A stretch of 40,000 nt of DNA from Halomonas salipaludis (lineage in GTDB: Bacteria > Pseudomonadota > Gammaproteobacteria > Pseudomonadales > Halomonadaceae). Positions 922-34,536 of the stretch are shown in pieces. The stretch spans positions 24,733 through 64,732 of the forward strand of contig NZ_NSKB01000001.1 of NCBI RefSeq assembly GCF_002286975.1, in the 5' to 3' direction. Numbering within the stretch: position 1 is the stretch's first letter; every line of letters begins with the position of its first letter. The position numbers and the translations under genes were made by a program. The notes under the pieces were generated by a model. That model had not been told where the DNA came from. It saw only the letters and a list, made by a program, of their open reading frames with translations, and did not search any database.

Positions 922-1823
922 TCAACCCAGCGGGCTGCGAACACCGGCGAACTCCTTACCCAGCACATGTGTATAGATCTGGGTAGTTTCCACGCTCTTG
1001 TGCCCCAGCAACTCCTGAACGGTGCGGATGTCCGTTCCTTGGCTAAGTAACTGCGTCGCGAAGCTGTGCCGCAAAGTATGGCAGGAGCCGGGGCGTGGTA
1101 ACGATGCTGCTCGCATCGCATTCTTGACGGCCTTCTGCACCGCTGAAGGATGGATATGGTGAAGAACGACCTTGCCGGCATCATCGAAGCAGGGGCGGCT
1201 AGCTGGAAATAGCCATTGCCAGGCCAGGGATGTCCCAGCATTGGGATACTTACGGTCCAGCGCGTGGGGAAGCGTCACAGGAACGCTATCATGGCTCAGG
1301 CGATGTTCAAGTTGCTGTCCTTGTCGCCCTTTCCGGCTCTTATCGTCAGTACCTGACGGTCGAAGTCGACATCGCGTACACGTAGGCGGCAGGTTTCGAG
1401 TACCCGTAATCCCGAGCCATACATCAAGGAGGCCATCAAGTGCACGGGGCCCGAGAGTTGATTCAGCACGCGAACGACCTCTTCGTGAGACAGCACCACC
1501 GGCAGTCGGCGCGGTCGCTTGGCGTGCGCGAAATCACCAATATCGCCGAGAGGCTGATCGAGCACATGGCGATAGAGGAACACGATGGCGTTCAGGGCTT
1601 GGTTCTGTGTGGCCGCTGCCACATGGCGCTGCACCGCAAGGTGCTCCAAGAAAGCCCTGACCTCGGGGCCACCCATGCTAGCGGGATGACGCACGCCATT
1701 GAAACGAATGAAGTAGCGTATCCAGTAGCAGTAGGTTTTTACGGTGCGAGGGCTGTAGCGTCTCACCTTCATGGTGGCCTTCACGCGATCCATGAGCTTT
1801 GGAGGTCGGCTGTGCGCGTCCAT
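922..1823 (-). pseudogene. intI: Integron integrase IntI (tyrosine recombinase), disrupted by frameshift and internal deletion
   Basis: The N-terminal ORF 1296..1823 ('VRRYSPRTVKTYCYWIRYFIRFNGVRHP...[16 protein letters not shown]...[10 protein letters not shown]') ends prematurely. The C-terminal ORF 922..1278 in another frame carries '[19 protein letters not shown]...[12 protein letters not shown]...[38 protein letters not shown]' (RHRY catalytic boxes plus the IntI-specific ALxRKYP segment). Only about 15 codons separate GKGDKD from LPxAL, versus about 35 in IntI proteins as I recall them. Confidence 0.85.
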
Positions 1824-5803: not shown

Positions 5804-6268
5804 ATGAGAATTGATTATCTTGAGGATGCACCGGATTTTATCCCGTTACTTGCTCGTGAAATGGCGGAGCACTGGAGCAGCATTATCCCTGGAGAATGCT
5901 ATGAGCGACGGTATGCGAAGCTAATTTCCCACCAGAATCGCGATCAGCTACCACTCGCATGGGTAGCGCATGAAAATGGTGTTCTGTTGGGCACAAGTGC
6001 TTTGAGAGTTTGTGACTTGGAAGGGAGAGAAGACTTAACCCCTTGGCTTGCAGGTATCTTTGTCATGCCGGATTACAGAGGCCGTGGAATCGCAGCTAAA
6101 CTTTGCGAAGTTGCAGAAAGGAAGGCGTGGGAATGGGGAGTTGCAAGATTATATCTGCACACTCCTGATCAGCAAGGGCTCTATCGAAAACTAGGGTGGA
6201 GTAGTTTAGAACTAGAGGATTGGAATGGGGTTCAGACAGAAATTATGGTCAAAGATCGCGAAGCCTAA
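5804..6268 (+). CDS. GNAT family N-acetyltransferase (cassette 6)
   Basis: 154 aa with 'VMPDYRGRGIAAKLCE' (acetyl-CoA binding motif). Confidence 0.8.
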   Translation: MRIDYLEDAPDFIPLLAREMAEHWSSIIPGECYERRYAKLISHQNRDQLPLAWVAHENGVLLGTSALRVCDLEGREDLTPWLAGIFVMPDYRGRGIAAKLCEVAERKAWEWGVARLYLHTPDQQGLYRKLGWSSLELEDWNGVQTEIMVKDREA

Positions 6269-6340
6269 CCAGGCGCATCAGTTCGCAGCCTTCGGCCGCC
6301 GGACGCTCGTAAACTCGCGCCGCTGTGCTTGGCGTTAGGC
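6263..6340 (+). other. attC site 6
   Basis: R'' GCCTAAC ... R' GTTAGGC, perfect consensus cores. Confidence 0.85.
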
Positions 6341-8651: not shown

Positions 8652-9260
8652 ATGCTCCAAGGCAGTTGGGATAAGGTCGCCAGTGACGTCGATTTCAATC
8701 TAGAAATTGATCTAGCGCGATTTCTTGACTTGATCAGCCGAAAAGCTAAGGTGCTAGACTTTGGGTGTGGGTATGGGCGGATTTCCAACGAACTTACTGA
8801 GTCCGGGTACACTGATGTAATGGGCGTTGATCCTTCCTGCGCAATGATCGAACGTGGAAGGAAGGCGTTTCCAGGGTTGCCTCTCCTGCATTTGGATGGG
8901 ATGGATCTTCCGTTCAGCGAGAATGCATTCGATGCCGTCGTCATTTGCGCGGTACTTACGTGCATTCCTTCACTTGATGAGCGGGGTAGAGTGGCTGCGG
9001 AAATAACCCGTGTGTTGAAGCCAGGCGGGGTTGTTCATATATCGGAGTTCTGTTCGGAAGAAAGTAAGAGCTTTATTTCCGGCCTCGGTTTACCGATGCG
9101 GTACAGTAGCCCGAAAGAGCTCCGCGACCTATTCGCTAGTTTTTCCTGCTTTCACGATGAGGTTGTGAGTGCAACTACTATGAGTGGTGATTCCACGTCC
9201 AGCTACCGCGCGTTCATCCGAAAGGCACTTAACAAAGCAATGCACGCGACAAGTGCGTGA
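8652..9260 (+). CDS. Class I SAM-dependent methyltransferase (cassette 9)
   Basis: 'VLDFGCGYGRIS' motif I. ATG 8652 follows GGAGA. Confidence 0.8.
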   Translation: MLQGSWDKVASDVDFNLEIDLARFLDLISRKAKVLDFGCGYGRISNELTESGYTDVMGVDPSCAMIERGRKAFPGLPLLHLDGMDLPFSENAFDAVVICAVLTCIPSLDERGRVAAEITRVLKPGGVVHISEFCSEESKSFISGLGLPMRYSSPKELRDLFASFSCFHDEVVSATTMSGDSTSSYRAFIRKALNKAMHATSA

Positions 9261-9275
9261 TTGCCGGCGTTGGGC
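9227..9275 (+). other. attC site 9 (short type, overlaps the CDS 3' end)
   Basis: ACTTAAC-aaa-GCAATGCACGC-gacaagt-GCGTGATTGC-cggc-GTTGGGC, with an extrahelical G in the stem. Confidence 0.7.
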
Positions 9276-9300
9276 CTAGAAGAAAAGAGGAGAAACAGCT

Positions 9301-9762
9301 TTGAGCGAATTCAATTTCCGCCAAGCGCGATCAGGTGATCTTGTGGCGCTTGTTGAGATGCTTGCTGACGATGATCTCGGTCGAACTCGCGAGTCACCGG
9401 GTACGCCGCTTGATAACGGCTACGCGTCAGCGTTTGAAGCTATAGAAAAAGATCCGAACAACGAGATCATCATCTGCGAATCAGAAGGCGAGTTGCTTGG
9501 CATGCTTCAAATAACCTTCATACCCTACTTGACTTATATTGGAAGCTGGAGAGCCTTGATTGAAGGCGTCCGCGTCTCTTCGTCTCAAAGGTGGGCAGGA
9601 ATCGGCGGTCAGCTCTTCGAATGGGCCATCGAAAGAGCTAAAGAAAAAGGTTGCGTAATCGTCCAACTCACAAGCGATAAAAAACGTCCAAACGCCATCC
9701 GCTTTTACGAAAATCTCGGCTTCAAAGCGTCACATGAAGGAATGAAGCTATGGCTCAACTAA
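9301..9762 (+). CDS. GNAT family N-acetyltransferase (cassette 10)
   Basis: TTG start after AGGAG. Acetyl-CoA-like motif 'RWAGIGGQLFEWAIERAKEKG'. C-terminus 'RFYENLGF'. Confidence 0.75.
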   Translation: MSEFNFRQARSGDLVALVEMLADDDLGRTRESPGTPLDNGYASAFEAIEKDPNNEIIICESEGELLGMLQITFIPYLTYIGSWRALIEGVRVSSSQRWAGIGGQLFEWAIERAKEKGCVIVQLTSDKKRPNAIRFYENLGFKASHEGMKLWLN

Positions 9763-9765
9763 GGA

Positions 9766-9833
9766 GCCCAACAGGTCGCTGCAGTTGATGTCCGCTAGCG
9801 CGGCCACAACTGAGCTTTGGCGTGTGTACCAGG
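9766..9833 (+). other. attC site 10, 5' portion (R' core split by the group II intron and completed at 11673-11677)
   Basis: R'' GCCCAAC. Stem GCTGCAGTTG / CAACTGAGC with an extrahelical base. ...ggcGT|[intron]|TAGCC restores GTTAGCC. Confidence 0.65.
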
Positions 9834-11672
9834 CATGGCACAGAACTAGAGAGGTGAAAGTCCTCTTGCTAGGTGTTCGCAGAGCCGAAGGCTAGGAGAA
9901 GGGCAAGGGCGTCATCGCGAGGTGGGGTCTGGAGGAAGCGCAATCCAAAGCTGCGGGGCGACGAACAGCAACCCGATATGAGGTGTGGTACATCCGGGGC
10001 GAGCGGGCACGTGACCGCGAAGCCCTCCATCTGCGGCGGGGGTGTGCTTTATAAATCGGGCGTTTACGCAGCGACAGTTCTGTGTCTTACCCTGGGAGGC
10101 CTGTCAGTGGTTCAGGGAAAGAGCTGAACCCCGGGCAACCGGTGTTGACCGACAGGCAGGAGTCAGCAGAGGGCATAGTAGGTTCAGCCGTGGAACCGAA
10201 GGCCCGAACAGAGACAGGAGTTGAGTGTCCGTGCAGAGGAGCAGGATGGTATCAGCAAAGCAGCTCACGCTGCCCCTGACATTACCAGGGGATGAACCTG
10301 CGCCTGGAGAGCGGGCCCGTCCCGACTCCGCTTAACCCTCACCGTGGATGGCGCGCGTACTGAGCAAGGACAACCTCAGTCGTGCCCTGAAACAAGTTCG
10401 ACGTAACAAAGGTGCGCCGGGCATCGACGGCATGACGGTCGACGAGTTGCCGGACTATCTGCGCCAACACTGGCCAGCTATTCGCCAGCAGCTGATCCGG
10501 CAGACCTACCGACCGCAACCGGTGCGGCGAACCATGATCCCCAAGCCGCAAGGCGGTCTCAGGCCACTGGGTATTCCCACGGTCCTGGACCGTTTCATCC
10601 AGCAAGCGATTGCCCAGGTAGTCCAGCAAGATTGGGAACCTTGCTTCCATCCCCGCAGCTACGGCTTTCGCCCCGGACGCTCTGCGCATCAAGCGGTCCG
10701 ATACGGACAGCATTGCGCTCGGGAAGGCCGCAACTGGGTGGTGGATCTGGACCTGGAAGCCTTCTTTGACCGGGTGAACCATGATCGGCTGATGGCACGC
10801 CTGAAACGGCACACGCCGGACAGGCCGTTACTCAGGTTGATCAACCGATACCTGAAGGCAGGGGGCCAGATCGACAACTGCAAAGCCCCGACACCCGAAG
10901 GCGTGCCGCAAGGCGGGCCACTGTCTCCGGTGTTGGCGAATGTGGTACTGGATGAACTGGATTGGGAACTGCACCGGCGCGGTCTACGTTTTGCGCGCTA
11001 TGCGGATGACTGCCAGATATTGGTAGGCAGCCGTCGTGCGGGCGAACGCGTCATGGTGAGTCTAACGCGCTTTATCGAAGACTCACTGCGGCTCACAGTG
11101 AATACACGAAAGAGCGCGGTGGATCGGCCCTGGAAGCGCAGATTCCTGGGCTTCACCCTCAGCCGGAAAGGGCAGCGCTTGAAGGTGGCTAGCGAAGCCA
11201 TCTCCAAGCTGAAAGCCCGGATCCGGATACTGAGCCGCCGAACACGGGGCCACTCACTGGTCCAGGTGATCGCAGACCTGAAAGAGACCCTGCTTGGTTG
11301 GAAAGCGTACTTCGACGAAGCCGAAGTGCTGAGCTCGCTGCGGGATCTGGACAAGTGGATACGGCGGAGACTGCGAAGTTACGTGTGGAAGCAATGGGGT
11401 CGAAGGGGATATCGTGAACTGAGAAAGCGGGGCGTCTCGGTCAGGTTGGCCTGGAACACTGCGAAATCAGCTCATGGGCCGTGGCGCCTGAGCCGTTCGC
11501 CGGCACTGGCGCAGGCGCAGGCACTTCCCGCCCACTACTTCCGGTGCCGTGGACTGCCGGAATTGGCAGTACGGTAACGGGTTGAATCAAGTCACTGAAT
11601 CGCCGTGGTACGTGATCCGTATGCCCGGTGATGTGGGAGGAGGGGCATCGTGAGGTGCCTCCCTATCCCGAT
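9834..11672 (+). mobile_element. Group II intron, class C (attC-targeting type), about 1.84 kb
   Basis: 5' GTGTA.. (the GT repeat makes the 5' end ambiguous, 9832-9834). Internal RT/maturase ORF. DV-like 34-nt hairpin at 11599-11632 with a CGC triad. DVI hairpin at 11635-11669 with bulged A 11665, 7 nt from the 3' end ...GAT. Confidence 0.75.
10348..11577 (+). CDS. Group II intron reverse transcriptase/maturase (no endonuclease domain)
   Basis: 'NKGAPGIDGMTVDEL', 'GIPTVLDRFIQQA', 'PQGGPLSPVLANVVLDELD', 'RYADDCQILV' (YADD). 409 aa. Confidence 0.9.
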   Translation: MARVLSKDNLSRALKQVRRNKGAPGIDGMTVDELPDYLRQHWPAIRQQLIRQTYRPQPVRRTMIPKPQGGLRPLGIPTVLDRFIQQAIAQVVQQDWEPCFHPRSYGFRPGRSAHQAVRYGQHCAREGRNWVVDLDLEAFFDRVNHDRLMARLKRHTPDRPLLRLINRYLKAGGQIDNCKAPTPEGVPQGGPLSPVLANVVLDELDWELHRRGLRFARYADDCQILVGSRRAGERVMVSLTRFIEDSLRLTVNTRKSAVDRPWKRRFLGFTLSRKGQRLKVASEAISKLKARIRILSRRTRGHSLVQVIADLKETLLGWKAYFDEAEVLSSLRDLDKWIRRRLRSYVWKQWGRRGYRELRKRGVSVRLAWNTAKSAHGPWRLSRSPALAQAQALPAHYFRCRGLPELAVR

Positions 11673-11737
11673 TAGCCACTGCGAGTGACTCATAGCCAAG
11701 CGACTATCTAGGGCCGTCCAAGTCGGAGTAGATTTAC

Positions 11738-12298
11738 ATGGGACTTTTGACCTTCAGCCTCAACATCACTCTGGACGGTTGTGTCGACCACCAGGAGGGA
11801 ATTGCCGACGACGAGACGCATGCCTTCTTCACCGGTCTAATGGACGAGTGCGGGGCGATGCTGTGGGGCCGTGTCACCTATGAGATGATGGAGAGCTACT
11901 GGCCAGCAGTTGCCCGCGGGGATGTGGAGGCACCGCCGGCAGTGCACGAGTGGGCGGTAAAGCTGGAGGTCAAGCCGAAGTATGTCGCTTCGAGGACGCG
12001 AACGGACTTTCGGTGGACCAACAGCCACCACATCGCTGGCGATCTGCGTTCGGGCGTGCAAAAGCTCAAGGACGCAACTCCGGCTGGTGTGCTCGTCGGT
12101 AGCGGCAAGCTTGCAACTGAGCTGGATCGGCTGGACCTGATTGATGAGTACAAGTTTCTTATTCACCCAAGGATAGCTGGCCACGGTCCGACCCTGTACC
12201 AGAGCGGGCTGCCTAACACACGGCAGCTTGAGTTGGTTTCGGCGAAGCCGCTTAGTAACGGCGCAGTCTCCATGCACTACCGGCGCGTGCGCGGCTAA
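11738..12298 (+). CDS. Dihydrofolate reductase-family protein (RibD C-terminal domain-like) (cassette 11)
   Basis: 'SLNITLDGCV...MLWGRVTYEMM...LIDEYKFLIHPRIAGHGPTLY'. Confidence 0.7.
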   Translation: MGLLTFSLNITLDGCVDHQEGIADDETHAFFTGLMDECGAMLWGRVTYEMMESYWPAVARGDVEAPPAVHEWAVKLEVKPKYVASRTRTDFRWTNSHHIAGDLRSGVQKLKDATPAGVLVGSGKLATELDRLDLIDEYKFLIHPRIAGHGPTLYQSGLPNTRQLELVSAKPLSNGAVSMHYRRVRG

Positions 12299-13535: not shown

Positions 13536-13606
13536 GAGGCTGTAGAAAAAGCCCACAGCCTCCGTCGTTTTGGTAGGATCGGGAAAACAGCCTAGGAGTG
13601 GTCAGC

Positions 13607-15250
13607 ATGCCCCGCTTCAAGCCCTACAACCATGATCAGAACGCCATGGTGGTGATCAACTACCAGGACCAGCTTCAGCCCGGTACGTTCGAGCACGCCG
13701 TCCACTACCTGATCGAACACAAGCTGGACCTGTCGGTTTTCCATCCCCAGTACCGCAACCACGATACGGGCCGGCTGGCCTATGACCCTGCCATACTGCT
13801 GAAGATCATCCTGTTCGCCTATTCCAAGGGCATCACCTCCAGCCGCGAGATGCAGTGGTGCTGTGAAACCAACATCATCTTCAAGGCGTTGTCCTGCGAT
13901 ACCGTCCCTCATTTCACCACCTTGGCGAAGTTCGTCAGCAGCCATGCCGATGAGATTGAAGAGCTCTTTGAGCAGGTGCTGCTGGTGTGCCATGAGCAAG
14001 GCCTGCTAGGCAACGAGCTCTTTGCTATCGACGGCTGTAAGGTGTCCTCGGATGCCTCAAAGGAGTGGTCTGGCACCTTCAAGGAGTTGGGCGAGAAGCG
14101 GGAGAAGCTGCGACGTTTGATTCGTCATCACCTGCTGGGGCACTATGCGCGGGATGAAGCCGAGACGGAGGCCGACCTTGATCGGGATATCCGTCGAGCC
14201 AAGACGATCCTCTCGCTAGATGCTGCCATGAACAAAGTCGATCGCTTCCTAAAGACGCACAACCCAAGGATGGGCCAGGGGAGCCGGAGTAAGGAAGTGA
14301 AGAGCAACATTACGGATAACCAAAGCGCCAAGATGACCACCAGCAAGGGCACGATCCAGGGCTATAACGGCGTGGCCACGGTGGACAAGAAACACCAAGT
14401 CATCATCGATGCCCAGGCGTTTGGAGAAGGGCAGGAGCATCATACACTGCAACCGGTACTCGAGAGGGTGAAGGCCCGCTTCAAGAAGCTGGGGATTGCT
14501 GACAACATCTACCAACAAGGCACCGTCGTCACTGCTGATACGGGCTTCGCCAATGACAACGTTATCAGGAATAACTTTGAACAGCCGTAGGCTGGCCCGC
14601 AGGGCGAGTCTCATGGATGAGACGAGTAAGCCAATATGAAGTACCTGCACGAACGACAGATCAATGGCTATGTGCCAGATAATTAGTTCCGTAGCCGAGA
14701 CCCGAGGTTTGCCGAGCAGAAAGACAAGTACGGCAAGCGGCACCAGAACCTGCCAGACAAGGGATGGAAAGCCACTTTTCCGGCCAGCGAATTCCAGTTC
14801 GACCCGGTCACCCTTAGCTGCATCTGCCCCATTGGGGAACCCCTGACTTACCGGGGACAGCGGGAAGCTGAGAATGGTAAGGTTCGGGCGCACTTTGAAG
14901 GTCGACTGCTGCAATGCCGGCACTGCCCCAAGAAGCACCGGTGCATGCAGAACCCCGCCTCGACAAATCACCGCAACGGAGCTGGCCGACAAGTCTCCTT
15001 TACGATAAAACGCGACGGACAACCGAGCTACACAGACTGGATGAAGCACCGAGTGGATAGCCAGCAGGGTAAGGAAATATATAGCCATCGAATGTCAGTG
15101 GTGGAGCCGGTATTCGGCAACATCGGCACCACGAAACGCTTGAACCGATTCGGGCTCCGTAGCAAGAGAAGAGTACAGGGTCAGTGGCAGTTATACTGCT
15201 TGATACACAACATTGAGAAGCTTGCCAATTATGGTAGATTAGGCACGTGA
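13607..15250 (+). pseudogene. IS1182/IS5-like DDE transposase, interrupted
   Basis: N-terminus 'YDPAILLKIILFAYSKGITSSREM' (DUF772-type). A single frame is kept throughout, broken by an 81-bp stop-containing insertion (14555-14635) and a TAG at 14684-14686. The C-terminus reads '...VVEPVFGNIGTTKRLNRFGLRSKRRVQGQWQLYCLIHNIEKL'. Confidence 0.75.
14555..14635 (+). repeat. 81-bp insertion flanked by the 6-bp direct repeat GCCAAT inside the transposase gene
   Basis: GCCAAT at 14549-14554 and 14630-14635. It contains hairpins GTTATcaggaATAAC and GTCTCATggATGAGAC. Confidence 0.55.
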
Positions 15251-29293: not shown

Positions 29294-29535
29294 GCAGCGC
29301 TGCGCGCTGCAATCGCGAATGAATTCGCTCCTAAAGGAAAATACCGCCAAACGCCGATGTAGGAGCGGCTTTAGCCGCGATAGGATTGGCTCGGCCAGCA
29401 GCGCTGCGCGCTGCAATCGCGACTGAAGTCGCTCCTACACTGGGTGGTGCTGTTCGCTGTAATCGCGACTGAAGTCGCTCCTACACTGGGTGGTGCTGTG
29501 CGCTGCAATCGCGACTGAAGTCGCTCCTACACTGG
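29294..29535. repeat. REP-type palindromic element cluster (about 5 copies, three in 46-bp tandem)
   Basis: Repeated 'gctgcaatcgcGACTgaAGTCgctcctacactgg' units at about 29397-29443, 29444-29489 and 29490-29535. One inverted copy 'gtaggagcggctttagccgcgat' at about 29359. Confidence 0.85.
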
Positions 29536-29549
29536 AGTGGCGCTGGTCG

Positions 29550-31607: not shown

Positions 31608-32422
31608 GGGGTGTCGTCCTGTGGCGGGCGCCAGCGCGGGGCGCGCTTGTCGAAGAAGCTGGCCAGGCCCTCCTGGCCTTCGTGGCTTACGCGCAGTTCG
31701 CTGATCACGTGGCAGCTGTGCTCGCGGGTGGCATCGCTGTCGGGCTCACGGGCGACCTCGGCGAGCAGCGCCTTGGTGGCGCGCTGGGCCTGGGGCGAGC
31801 CGGCCAGCAGCGTCGCGAGCATGGTCTCGATTTCGTCATCCAGGTCATCGTGGCCCACCACCTGGTGAACCAGGCCGAGCCCAAGGCCGGTGGCGGCGTC
31901 GATCTCCTCGGCGGTCAGGGCGAAGCGGCGCGTCTGGCGCGGGCCGATGGCGCGCTGCACATAGGGGCTGATGACTGCCGGAGCAAGGCCGATCTTGACC
32001 TCTGAGAGGCAGAAGCGGGCCTTCTCTGAGGCGATGACGATATCGCAGCAGGCGGCGAGGCCCACGGCGCCGCCGAAGGCCGCGCCCTGCACCCGGCACA
32101 CGGTGGGGCAGGGCAGGGTGTCGAGGCGCTGCATCATTTCGGCGAGCCTGCGCGAGTCGGCGAGGTTGGCCTCGAGGTCATACTCGACCATGCGCTGCAT
32201 CCAGTTCAGGTCGGCGCCGGCGGAGAAGTGCTTGCCCTCGGAACCCAGCACCATCACCCGCACCTCGCCGCGGGTGGCGGCCTCATGCAGGTGTGCCAGG
32301 TGCGCGTTGAGCTCGGCGATCAGGCTATCGTCGAAGGCGTTGTGCACCTCGGGGCGGTTCAGCGTCAGCCGGGCGACGCCGCGTTCGTCGATGTGTTGCT
32401 GGCAGAGTGTGGTCGTTGCCAT
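31604..32422 (-). CDS. liuC: Methylglutaconyl-CoA hydratase (enoyl-CoA hydratase/crotonase family)
   Basis: Start 'MATTTLCQQHIDERGVARLTLNRPEVHNAF' at 32422, preceded by GGAGGG. The 24 upstream codons of the ORF-track call lie in a REP element. 4-nt overlap with liuD. Confidence 0.85.
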   Translation of the reverse strand: MATTTLCQQHIDERGVARLTLNRPEVHNAFDDSLIAELNAHLAHLHEAATRGEVRVMVLGSEGKHFSAGADLNWMQRMVEYDLEANLADSRRLAEMMQRLDTLPCPTVCRVQGAAFGGAVGLAACCDIVIASEKARFCLSEVKIGLAPAVISPYVQRAIGPRQTRRFALTAEEIDAATGLGLGLVHQVVGHDDLDDEIETMLATLLAGSPQAQRATKALLAEVAREPDSDATREHSCHVISELRVSHEGQEGLASFFDKRAPRWRPPQDDTP

Positions 32423-32440
32423 GGTGAAACCTCCCTCCAG

Positions 32441-32930
32441 TGGGAGCGAACTTATTCGCGATGGCTGTTTGCCCGGCAGGGCTGCGCCCTGCATCGCGGT
32501 TGAAACCGCTCCTACATTTGCCTCGGCGCCATTTCCCTGTGGGAGCGAATTTATTCGCGATGGGCTGTTTATCCGGCAGGGCTGAGCCCTGCATCGCGGT
32601 TGAAACCGCTCCTACATTTGCCTCGGCGCCATTTCCCTGTGGGAGCGAATTCATTCGCGATGGGCTGTTTGCCCGGCAGGGCTGCGCCCTGCATCGCGGT
32701 TGAAACCGCTCCTACATGTGCTTTGGCGCCATTCCCTAGTGGGAGCGAATTCATTCGCGATGGGCTGTTTGCCTGGCAGGGCTGCGCCCTGCATCGCGGT
32801 TGAAACCGCTCCTACATTTGCCTCGGCGCCATTTCCCTGTGGGAGCGAATTCATTCGCGATGGGCTGTTTATCCGGCAGGGCTGCGCCCTGCATCGCGGT
32901 TGAAACCGCTCCCACATTTGCCTCGGCGCT
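32441..32930. repeat. Tandem array of 5 x 100-bp composite REP units between liuB and liuC
   Basis: The unit 'gggagcGAATtcATTCgcgatgggctgtttgcccggCAGGGCtgcGCCCTGcatcGCGGTTgaAACCGCtcctacatttgcctcggcgccatttccctgt' recurs at 32442, 32541, 32641, 32741 and 32841. Confidence 0.95.
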
Positions 32931-34536
32931 ACATCCTGAACACACCAAAGGTGGTGTCTGCTATCTCGGCATTCATGGCGGCGGCGAGCGCGAGGCCCAG
33001 CACGTCGCGAGTCTGGGCTGGGTCGATCACGCCGTCGTCCCATAGCCGCGCACTGGCGTAGTAGGGGTGGCCCTGGTGCTCGTACTGCTCGCGGGTGGGG
33101 GCCTTGAAGGCTTCTTCGTCTTCGGCGCTCCACTCGCGGCCGTCGCGCTCGTGCTGCTCGCGCTTGACCTGGGCCAGTACGCCGGCAGCTTGTTCTCCAC
33201 CCATGACGGAAATCCGGGCATTCGGCCACATAAACAGCAGGTTGGGCTCGAAGGCACGGCCGCACATGCCGTAGTTGCCGGCGCCGAAGCTGCCGCCGAT
33301 CAGCACGGTGAACTTGGGCACCCGGGCGCAGGCCACCGCGGTGACCAGCTTGGCGCCATGCTTGGCGATGCCCTCGTGCTCGTACTTGGAGCCGACCATA
33401 AAGCCGGTGATGTTCTGCAAGAACAGCAGCGGGATCTTGCGCTGGGCACAGAGCTCGATAAAGTGCGCGCCTTTCACGGCACTCTCGGAAAACAGTACGC
33501 CGTTGTTGGCGACGATGCCCACCGGGTGGCCGTGGATATGCGCGAAGCCGGTGACCAGGGTGTCGCCGTAGTAGCGCTTGAACTCGTCGAAGTCGGAGTC
33601 GTCGACGATACGGCCGATCACCTCGCGCACGTCGAAGGGCTTCTTGAGGTCGGTGCCGACGATGCCGTAGAGCTCGGCGGGGTCGAGCCGCGGCGGCTTG
33701 GGAGGCTGCATGGCGAGCCGGCCGCGCTTCTGCCAGTTGAGCCGCGATACACAGGCGCGGGCCAGCTGCAGGGCGTGGGCGTCGTTCTCGGCGTAGTGGT
33801 CGGCCACGCCGCTGAGCTTGGCGTGGACGTCGGCGCCGCCCAGCGCCTCGGCGCTGATGCTCTCGCCGGTGGCGGCCTTCACCAGCGGCGGGCCGCCCAG
33901 GAAGATGGTGCCCTGCTCGCGGACGATGATCGACTCGTCGGCCATGGCCGGCACGTAGGCGCCGCCGGCGGTACAGGAGCCCATCACCACGGCGATCTGC
34001 GGGATGCCTTCGGCGGAGAGGGTGGCCTGGTTATAGAAGATGCGCCCGAAGTGGTCGCGGTCGGGGAATACCTCGTCCTGCAGGGGCAGGTAGGCGCCGC
34101 CGGAGTCGACGAGATAAATACACGGCAGGCGATGCTTGCGGGCGATCTCCTGGGCGCGGATGTGCTTCTTCACCGTGAGCGGGTAATAGGTCCCGCCCTT
34201 GACAGTGGCGTCATTGGCGACGATCACGCACTCCACGCCCGAGACGCGGCCGATGCCGGTGACGATGCTGGCAGCGGGCACTGCATCGGCGTAGACCTCA
34301 TGGGCGGCCAGCGCCGAGAACTCGAGGAACGGCGAACCTTCGTCGAGCAGATGGTCGATGCGGTCGCGCACGAACAGCTTGCCACGACCTTCGTGCCGGG
34401 CGCGGGCCTTGTCGCCGCCGCCCCGGCGGATCGCCGCGCTCAGCTCGCGTAGCGCCAGCACCTCCCGGCGCATGGCCGCCTCATTGGCCTGGAATAGCTC
34501 GCTGCGCGGGTTGACTTGTGTCGTTAAGATAGCCAT
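32929..34536 (-). CDS. liuB: 3-methylcrotonyl-CoA carboxylase beta (carboxyltransferase) subunit
   Basis: Start '[15 protein letters not shown]' at 34536, 535 aa. Sequence '[26 protein letters not shown]' and '[12 protein letters not shown]'. Confidence 0.9.

Follow-up and report, generated by a model that had tools for sequence, protein, structure and literature searches.

Group II introns of class C (IIC) that interrupt the recombination sites (attC) of integron cassettes are described from the bottom strand of the site, at the R'' box, where they lie antisense to the cassettes (PMC3001079, PMC7923331). The initial annotation of the locus considered here gave this position correctly. The locus lies in a stretch of 40,000 nucleotides from Halomonas salipaludis (contig NZ_NSKB01000001.1, positions 24,733 to 64,732), hereafter the window, and raises the question of whether an intron found in the opposite, cassette-sense strand of an attC site is a stray member of that lineage or something else. 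Positions 9824-11672 of the window very probably hold an intact-looking IIC intron without endonuclease (En) domain that retrohomed in sense orientation into an attC top strand and belongs to a distinct, widespread clade with an exon-binding site 1 (EBS1) reading ACG. The intron is a further example of a known but rarely described group, the sense, top-strand IIC introns in attC sites. Sense insertion in the top strand thus appears as the consistent behaviour of a separate clade and not as an oddity of one antisense lineage.

Intron boundaries and target recognition

The intron, the two halves of the interrupted attC site and the recognition loop are placed as follows, where IBS stands for intron-binding site.

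9824-11672, plus strand: group II intron, class C, 1849 nt, reading 5' GTGTACC...CCCGAT 3' (blastn relatives, Rfam)
9766-9823, plus strand: 5' part of the interrupted attC, top strand (sequence read; a single-strand fold shows the hairpin), with R'' GCCCAAC at 9766-9772, stem-loop at 9778-9815, a spacer, and IBS1 CGT at 9821-9823
11673-11677, plus strand: rest of the R' core, TAGCC, followed by the start of the next cassette; IBS3 is T11673
10007-10014, plus strand: EBS1 loop GCACGTGA, with EBS1 ACG at 10009-10011

The window carries a chromosomal integron, seen as a long run of small plus-strand open reading frames (ORFs) with attC sites between them. These sites have the 5' end YTAAC(A/C)A and the 3' end GGCGTTAGG/C, and the interrupted site agrees with them in polarity. 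Insertion at GT|T of an R' core behind an attC stem-loop, as proposed in the initial annotation, is borne out by both the sequence read and the fold, with the G and first T of the core at 9822-9823 and its remainder across the intron. The 5' exon starts with GCCCAACAGG and finishes with GGCGT, which is the top strand. Cassette-sense orientation likewise holds, as the plus strand contains the intron, all cassette ORFs and the top strand of attC, and the integrase gene intI is divergent.

The boundaries follow from the alignments of relatives, the rejoined R' core, an uninterrupted cassette boundary in another genome and the pairing of EBS1 with IBS1. Alignments by blastn to full-length relatives span exactly base 1 to base 1849 of the intron; these relatives include two Marinobacter genomes (85% identity), a genome of the same genus (91%) and further copies at 66-76%, and the junctions of relatives read ...CGT|GTGTG...CCCGAT|T. 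Excising 9824-11672 gives ...TTTGGCGT+TAGCC, in agreement with the R' ends elsewhere in the array (GGCGTTAGG/GGCGTTAGC; attC 3' ends ...GGCGTTAG), so that the exon join expected across 9823/11673 is ...TTTGGCGT-TAGCCACT.... In a genome of the same family and another genus (G424), a RibD_C cassette 98% identical to the one downstream of the intron stands uninterrupted after a different attC (...GAGGCGTTAGCCACTGCGAG), and the boundary there reads ...GAGGCGT TAGCCACTGCGAG. An empty site with both flanks, that is, the exact GNAT-RibD_C pair, was not found in the family genomes, which gave only the downstream cassette with a different attC.

Two other 5' ends were considered and rejected. The span first annotated, 9834-11672, is right at its 3' end and 10 nt off at its 5' end, since with a start at 9834 ten intron bases would stay behind after excision; the figure looks like a counting slip, as the letters quoted with it, ggcGT|, sit at 9819-9823. 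A start at 9826 (GTAC, by analogy with bottom-strand introns) would need an EBS1 of ACA, and ACG pairs with CGT, not TGT. This start is also contradicted by close relatives that read CGT|GTGTG and by the array attC ends GGCGTTAG. At the aadA1-3' conserved segment (3'-CS) and aacA4 junctions of the plasmids pR148 and pPp47, described below, GT|T is presumably the sole possible split.

IIC introns insert just 3' of a stem-loop by way of a 3-4 nt IBS1 and an IBS3, with no IBS2. In the window intron, EBS1 ACG (10009-10011) complements IBS1 CGT (9821-9823), the last three bases of the exon. When the EBS1 loops of 45 related introns were located by alignment, loop positions 3-5 paired with the final 3 nt of the 5' exon in 44; under shuffling of the exons a mean of 12.3 paired, and none of 2000 shuffles attained 44. 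The combination of EBS1 ACG with IBS1 CGT was found in all 14 aligned members of the window intron's clade with a readable exon, with locus L090 carrying a G.U variant, GCG, while the EBS1 of relatives at transcription terminators varies and tracks the exon.

The remaining parts of the intron identify the ribozyme and its protein.

9911-10204, plus strand: ribozyme core, domains I to IV (DI-DIV; Rfam, both matches above gathering thresholds)
10348-11577, plus strand: intron-encoded protein, 409 aa, reverse transcriptase (RT) plus maturase (X), YADD present
11599-11632, plus strand: domain V (DV), 34 nt (fold and RF00029 alignment), CGC triad with a G.U pair, 2-nt bulge
11634-11670, plus strand: domain VI (DVI; fold), bulged UA including A11665, which lies 7 nt from the 3' splice site and may be the branch point

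Covariance models, named in the initial annotation as a check, match DI-DIV (RF02001, 126.3 bits, 9911-10085; RF01998, 56.6 bits, 10125-10204), and at a relaxed threshold the DV/DVI model RF00029 gives a sub-threshold 24 bits at 11598-11672, ending exactly at the annotated 3' end. Class C introns have a short DV with the catalytic triad CGC instead of AGC, and DV here reads AUCGCCG... where the consensus has GAGCCG. Folding reproduced the 34-nt DV hairpin with its triad, G.U pair and bulge, as well as the DVI hairpin with bulged A11665, both of which the initial annotation had noted; the fold of 11596-11672, covering the two domains, has a z of -3.6. The 409-aa ORF matches Pfam RVT_1 (7.5e-40) and GIIM (7e-15) and NCBIfam TIGR04416 group_II_RT_mat (388 bits). 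No En domain was found in it by Pfam or NCBIfam profile matches, which confirms the En-minus RT previously annotated. The traits of class C are therefore present in the ribozyme, in an RT-maturase without En, in the CGC triad of DV and in a target made of a stem-loop and a short IBS1.

A separate clade of top-strand introns

In a maximum-likelihood tree of 88 RTs, built without a non-class-C outgroup or reference RTs of other classes and weakly resolved along its backbone, the top-strand introns form one clade (support 80/99 at the base and 99/96 for an inner group of 16). The bottom-strand introns form another (100/100), which is nested among further IIC introns and is not sister to the top-strand clade. 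With the RT of Kl.pn.I3, a bottom-strand intron, the window RT shares only 45% identity, as against 53-58% with those of IIC introns inserted behind terminators (hairpin plus T-run). The initial annotation had framed the intron as a member of the IIC-attC lineage and had proposed placing its RT phylogenetically. By this tree the RT does group with introns that are all of IIC target type, but it falls outside the classical IIC-attC lineage. Judged by the features of that lineage, the window intron shares the insertion in attC and lacks the bottom-strand position, the TTGT/T target and RT monophyly, the last assessed against Kl.pn.I3-type RTs.

The insertion sites follow the tree. Two unlabelled loci, L090 and L095, were placed in the top-strand clade by their RTs; the site type was thereby foreseen, and both, when read, proved to lie at ...CGT|T after a hairpin resembling that of an attC top strand. 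Eight further loci with one or both junctions readable came from 200 genomes searched within the window's family, where the 5' junction is GCGT|GTGTGYC in seven, the 3' junction is CCCGAT|TA in five, and both are read in four. Altogether, both junctions could be read at 21 sites of the clade (drawn from the window, 15 sites in other genomes and two plasmids, L090 and L095, and the four family loci) and one junction at eight more, and all are CGT|T. These sites occur in gamma-, beta- and deltaproteobacteria, in one Planctomycetota genome and on two plasmids. All 14 top-strand 5' exons that were folded contain a hairpin ending a few bases ahead of CGT, and exons of the clade start with YTAACaa and finish with GCGT, as in the top strand of attC, including the aadA1 and aacA4 attC. 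Counts of ORF strand and R' motifs in the 5-kb flanks, noisy in high-GC DNA, lend weak support to the orientation.

Bottom-strand introns served as controls, namely Kl.pn.I3 and six of its genomic relatives. Their 5' exon starts with YCTAACGC, the complement of the R' end, and finishes with TTGT, the intron starts with GTACGCC, and the EBS1 loop GCACAAGA carries the EBS1 ACA(A). In pIMP-KP1495, ltrA of Kl.pn.I3 lies antisense to blaIMP-4, whose matching sequence is interrupted at R'', 8 nt past the stop codon. These data bear on the suggestion that the window intron is an ordinary classical IIC-attC intron that went into the wrong, top strand because attC is nearly palindromic. Both strands of attC do read RYYYAAC...GTTRRRY and offer GT|T behind a hairpin, and sense copies have been treated as exceptions (PMC9229058, PMC7923331), with a "different invasion process" proposed for the case in Shewanella algae (PMC9229058). 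However, the RT, at 45% identity to Kl.pn.I3, lies in the other clade, EBS1 is ACG and not ACAA, the 5' end is GTGTR and not GTACG, and a stray insertion is already contradicted by the position of every checked clade member at CGT|T. A wrong-strand insertion by the classical lineage is thus scarcely credible.

According to a second explanation, the intron is a generic terminator-type IIC intron for which any hairpin followed by CGT|T suffices, the attC R' ending in GCGTT only incidentally. The nearest outgroups indeed follow Rho-independent terminators and use the same EBS1 loop with other triplets, and three members of the clade (L003, L019 and L112) stand behind hairpins without a clear R'' box. 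Yet most members with readable flanks sit in recognisable attC top strands, those of aadA1 and aacA4 among them, and the constancy of EBS1 ACG in the 14 aligned members (GCG in L090) differs from the free variation seen in terminator-type introns. Furthermore, a hairpin followed by CGT is no feature of terminators. Such indifference to attC is accordingly considered improbable, and a clade found mostly in attC top strands is the preferred account.

The orientation, which the initial annotation held to be novel, has precedents. A top-strand, sense IIC intron, termed "unusual", was published for a class 1 integron of Enterobacter cloacae (Rodriguez-Martinez, Nordmann and Poirel, J Bacteriol 2012;194:150), as described in PMC7923331; by that description it resembles the window intron, from which it differs in its clinical class 1 integron as against a chromosomal array. 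The intron of S. algae KC-Na-R1 is likewise "in the same orientation" (PMC9229058), and the S. algae plasmid CP033574 is among the PLSDB matches of pR148 type. Plasmid pR148 (IncC, Aeromonas hydrophila) carries the array intI1-qacL-blaOXA-10-aadA1-[intron, sense]-qacEdelta1 with the junctions ...CTCAAGCGT|GTGTGTC...CCCGAT|TAGATGCAC, and pPp47 (Proteus penneri) carries a sense intron after the aacA4 attC in a similar arrangement. The annotations of both plasmids put ltrA on one strand with the cassettes and qacEdelta1.

The introns of pR148, CP033574 and pPp47 share with the window intron the clade, the insertion site, the sense orientation and the EBS1 loop GCACGTGA; in these plasmids the site belongs to an aadA1 or aacA4 attC and reads ...GCGT|intron|TAGAT. 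Their RTs are 64-69% identical to the window RT and their DNA is about 67% identical; unlike the window copy, they reside in mobile class 1 integrons beside the 3'-CS. The clade occurs in class 1 integrons of clinical origin, on IncC plasmids and in an IMP-4 array, as well as in environmental chromosomal integrons. In PLSDB, nine records have an RT 60-80% identical to that of the window, as against about 155 with an RT at least 90% identical to that of Kl.pn.I3, so top-strand introns are a minority on plasmids. This rarity may explain why sense copies have been treated as exceptions.

Strand choice, activity and the host integron

The anatomy of the intron and the known behaviour of IIC introns suggest how the insertion could have come about. 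A particle of intron RNA and RT would recognise a single-stranded DNA hairpin, here the top-strand attC, and reverse-splice after the 3-nt IBS1 CGU, read by EBS1 ACG, and before the IBS3 U. The insertion parts the T's of the R' core from each other (GT|TAGCC), a single nucleotide 3' of G|TT, where the integrase crosses over. Without an endonuclease, the intron would depend on primers at replication forks, and the top strand of the array, as the presumed lagging-strand template, is the strand that an En-minus intron would be expected to invade there.

En-minus introns prefer the lagging-strand template, and sedentary chromosomal integrons tend to hold the attC bottom strands on the leading-strand template. 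GC skew was judged at chromosome scale in two genomes, as the local skew of 5-kb flanks is confounded by the coding strand. Along the first ~450 kb of the contig that holds the window, it is the plus strand that is rich in G. A complete genome of the same genus carries, at 2.73 Mb on its minus strand, a 91% identical copy that was inserted independently, and the excess of G there is on the minus strand. Since the intron-sense strand is G-rich in both, the skew places the intron and the attC top strand on the lagging-strand template, in keeping with both of these published tendencies.

The 1.85-kb insert stands between a GNAT cassette and a RibD_C cassette and splits the R box, and the attC would no longer fold or recombine; the two cassettes would thus be locked together. 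With its sense orientation, the intron could have its RT expressed from read-through transcripts of the cassettes, and these could be spliced to a continuous mRNA. Splicing out of transcripts from the cassette promoter Pc, as first envisaged, is doubtful, however, because the distance from attI to the intron, about 8 kb with ten attC sites, makes Pc an unlikely source.

The same geometry had been called that required by the cassette-genesis model of Leon and Roy (2009), in which, as summarised in PMC7923331, two intron copies recombine and a gene is thereby joined to an attC. In the top-strand position, the 5' exon contains the attC and would also be the place of a gene with its terminator, so that such recombination would not put an attC downstream of a gene. 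Taking the model as that summary gives it, the proposed link to cassette genesis is unsupported for the top-strand geometry.

Several observations weigh against an active, attC-dedicated clade with the history outlined above. The hairpins ahead of L003, L019 and L112 show no obvious attC. Resolution along the backbone of the RT tree, which lacks a non-class-C outgroup, is poor, so that separate origins for the two clades that target attC are likely without being proven. For the lagging template, the argument draws on two genomes together with confounded local skews. For the window copy itself, splicing, RT expression and mobility are deduced from sequence. It starts with GTGTA where every relative has GTGTG, a change at position 5 of the conserved GUGYG that might impair splicing, and a search of its own genome for further copies, another check suggested at the outset, found it to be the only one, although the array offers some 20-30 similar R' sites. 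Its current activity is consequently unproven.

These observations give some substance to the idea that the window copy is a dead relic, inserted once, no longer splicing or moving and merely kept by a frozen integron, to which the splitting of intI in two frames can be added alongside the single copy and the G-to-A change at intron position 5. On the other hand, the RT ORF is full length with YADD, and conservation extends to DV, DVI and the EBS1 loop, all of them intact. The 91% identical copy at another site in the same-genus genome moreover argues for fairly recent mobility. A relic is rather unlikely on this evidence, and an intact-looking intron remains the favoured description of the window copy.

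The integron genes around the intron are as follows.

922-1823, minus strand: integron integrase gene, a pseudogene in two frames (TIGR02249), divergent from the cassette array
9301-9762, plus strand: upstream cassette ORF, GNAT acetyltransferase (Pfam Acetyltransf_1), same strand as the intron
11738-12298, plus strand: downstream cassette ORF, RibD_C family (Pfam RibD_C), same strand as the intron

In the integrase gene, TIGR02249 profile positions 2-164 fall in the ORF at 1296-1823 and positions 196-312 in the ORF at 922-1278, in different frames, with about 30 profile positions absent between the halves. The cassette array is probably frozen. Upstream of the intron, the gap between a methyltransferase ORF and the GNAT ORF is only ~40 nt (9260-9300) and ends in GCCGGCGTTGGGCC, which is R'-like, without a recognisable full attC, so the two genes may form a fused cassette. 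Further along, an IS1182-family transposase ORF (13598-14590, plus strand) adjoins an attC end; it is truncated, with 330 aa for a profile of 488 positions. In the part of the window outside the integron, a 100-bp unit is repeated five times in tandem, and a 46-nt palindromic unit resembling repetitive extragenic palindromes occurs four times, at 32363-32962 and 29299-29540.

Comparison with known class C introns

Among known introns, the terminator-targeting IIC introns of the B.h.I1 type (Robart, Seo and Zimmerly 2007) share with the window intron a target of stem-loop and short IBS1, with no IBS2, and an En-minus RT, and theirs are the nearest RTs outside the clade. They differ in inserting behind a GC-rich hairpin with a T-run, in having variable IBS1 and EBS1 sequences and in having no integron association. 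Some terminator-type introns were seen head-to-tail (L034 and L074 at the 3' exon, L023 and L043 at the 5' exon; junction ...CCGAT|GTGTGCCGAGC), and in such loci the exon beside one copy is the end or start of another.

The classical IIC-attC introns (S.ma.I2, E.c.I7, Kl.pn.I1 and Kl.pn.I3; Quiroga 2008, Leon and Roy 2009/2010) resemble the window intron in class, in their En-minus RT, in a length of about 1.9 kb and in the CCCGAT end. Both kinds insert just 3' of an attC hairpin, into a GTTRRRY box that they split at GT|T, with an IBS1 of 3-4 nt read by the same DI loop. They differ in strand (bottom versus top), box (R'' versus R'), orientation (antisense versus sense), IBS1 (UUGU versus CGU), EBS1 (ACAA versus ACG) and 5' end (GUACG versus GUGUR), and the published target consensus of the classical lineage is TTGT/T at R'' (PMC7923331). 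The rule that ACG goes with CGT|T and ACAA with TTGT|T offers a direct test of IIC retargeting and lets annotators quickly distinguish the two attC-intron lineages.

Some details of the bottom-strand loci may be recorded here. At L085-L092 and L098, bottom-strand introns start with GUACG as against the usual GUGYG, and with the TTGT exon the DNA junction reads GTGTACG. The bottom-strand copy at L086 (G230:C6) is probably decayed, as its EBS1 loop contains a 28-nt insertion and its RT an in-frame TGA. At L085 (pIMP-KP1495), around locus coordinates 6190-6290, the attC beyond Kl.pn.I3 differs from the one belonging to blaIMP-4, which is intact in L083. Kl.pn.I3 is therefore flanked by halves of two attC sites, as expected had intron copies recombined.

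As a tentative proposal, with the balance leaning somewhat against it, the top-strand attC introns may be independently evolved attC specialists, with EBS1 retuned from terminator T-runs to CGU, a strand choice set by the lagging-strand template, and an insertion that locks cassettes yet can be spliced. In the bottom-strand lineage, internal outward promoters (Pout) drive the downstream cassettes, and transcription from Pc is blocked. If the proposal is true, the top-strand lineage mirrors this lineage, which supplies its own promoters. Either lineage would disable the attC that it occupies. The antisense intron, however, should block the cassette transcripts, whereas the sense intron could leave them by splicing and would rely on them for its expression.

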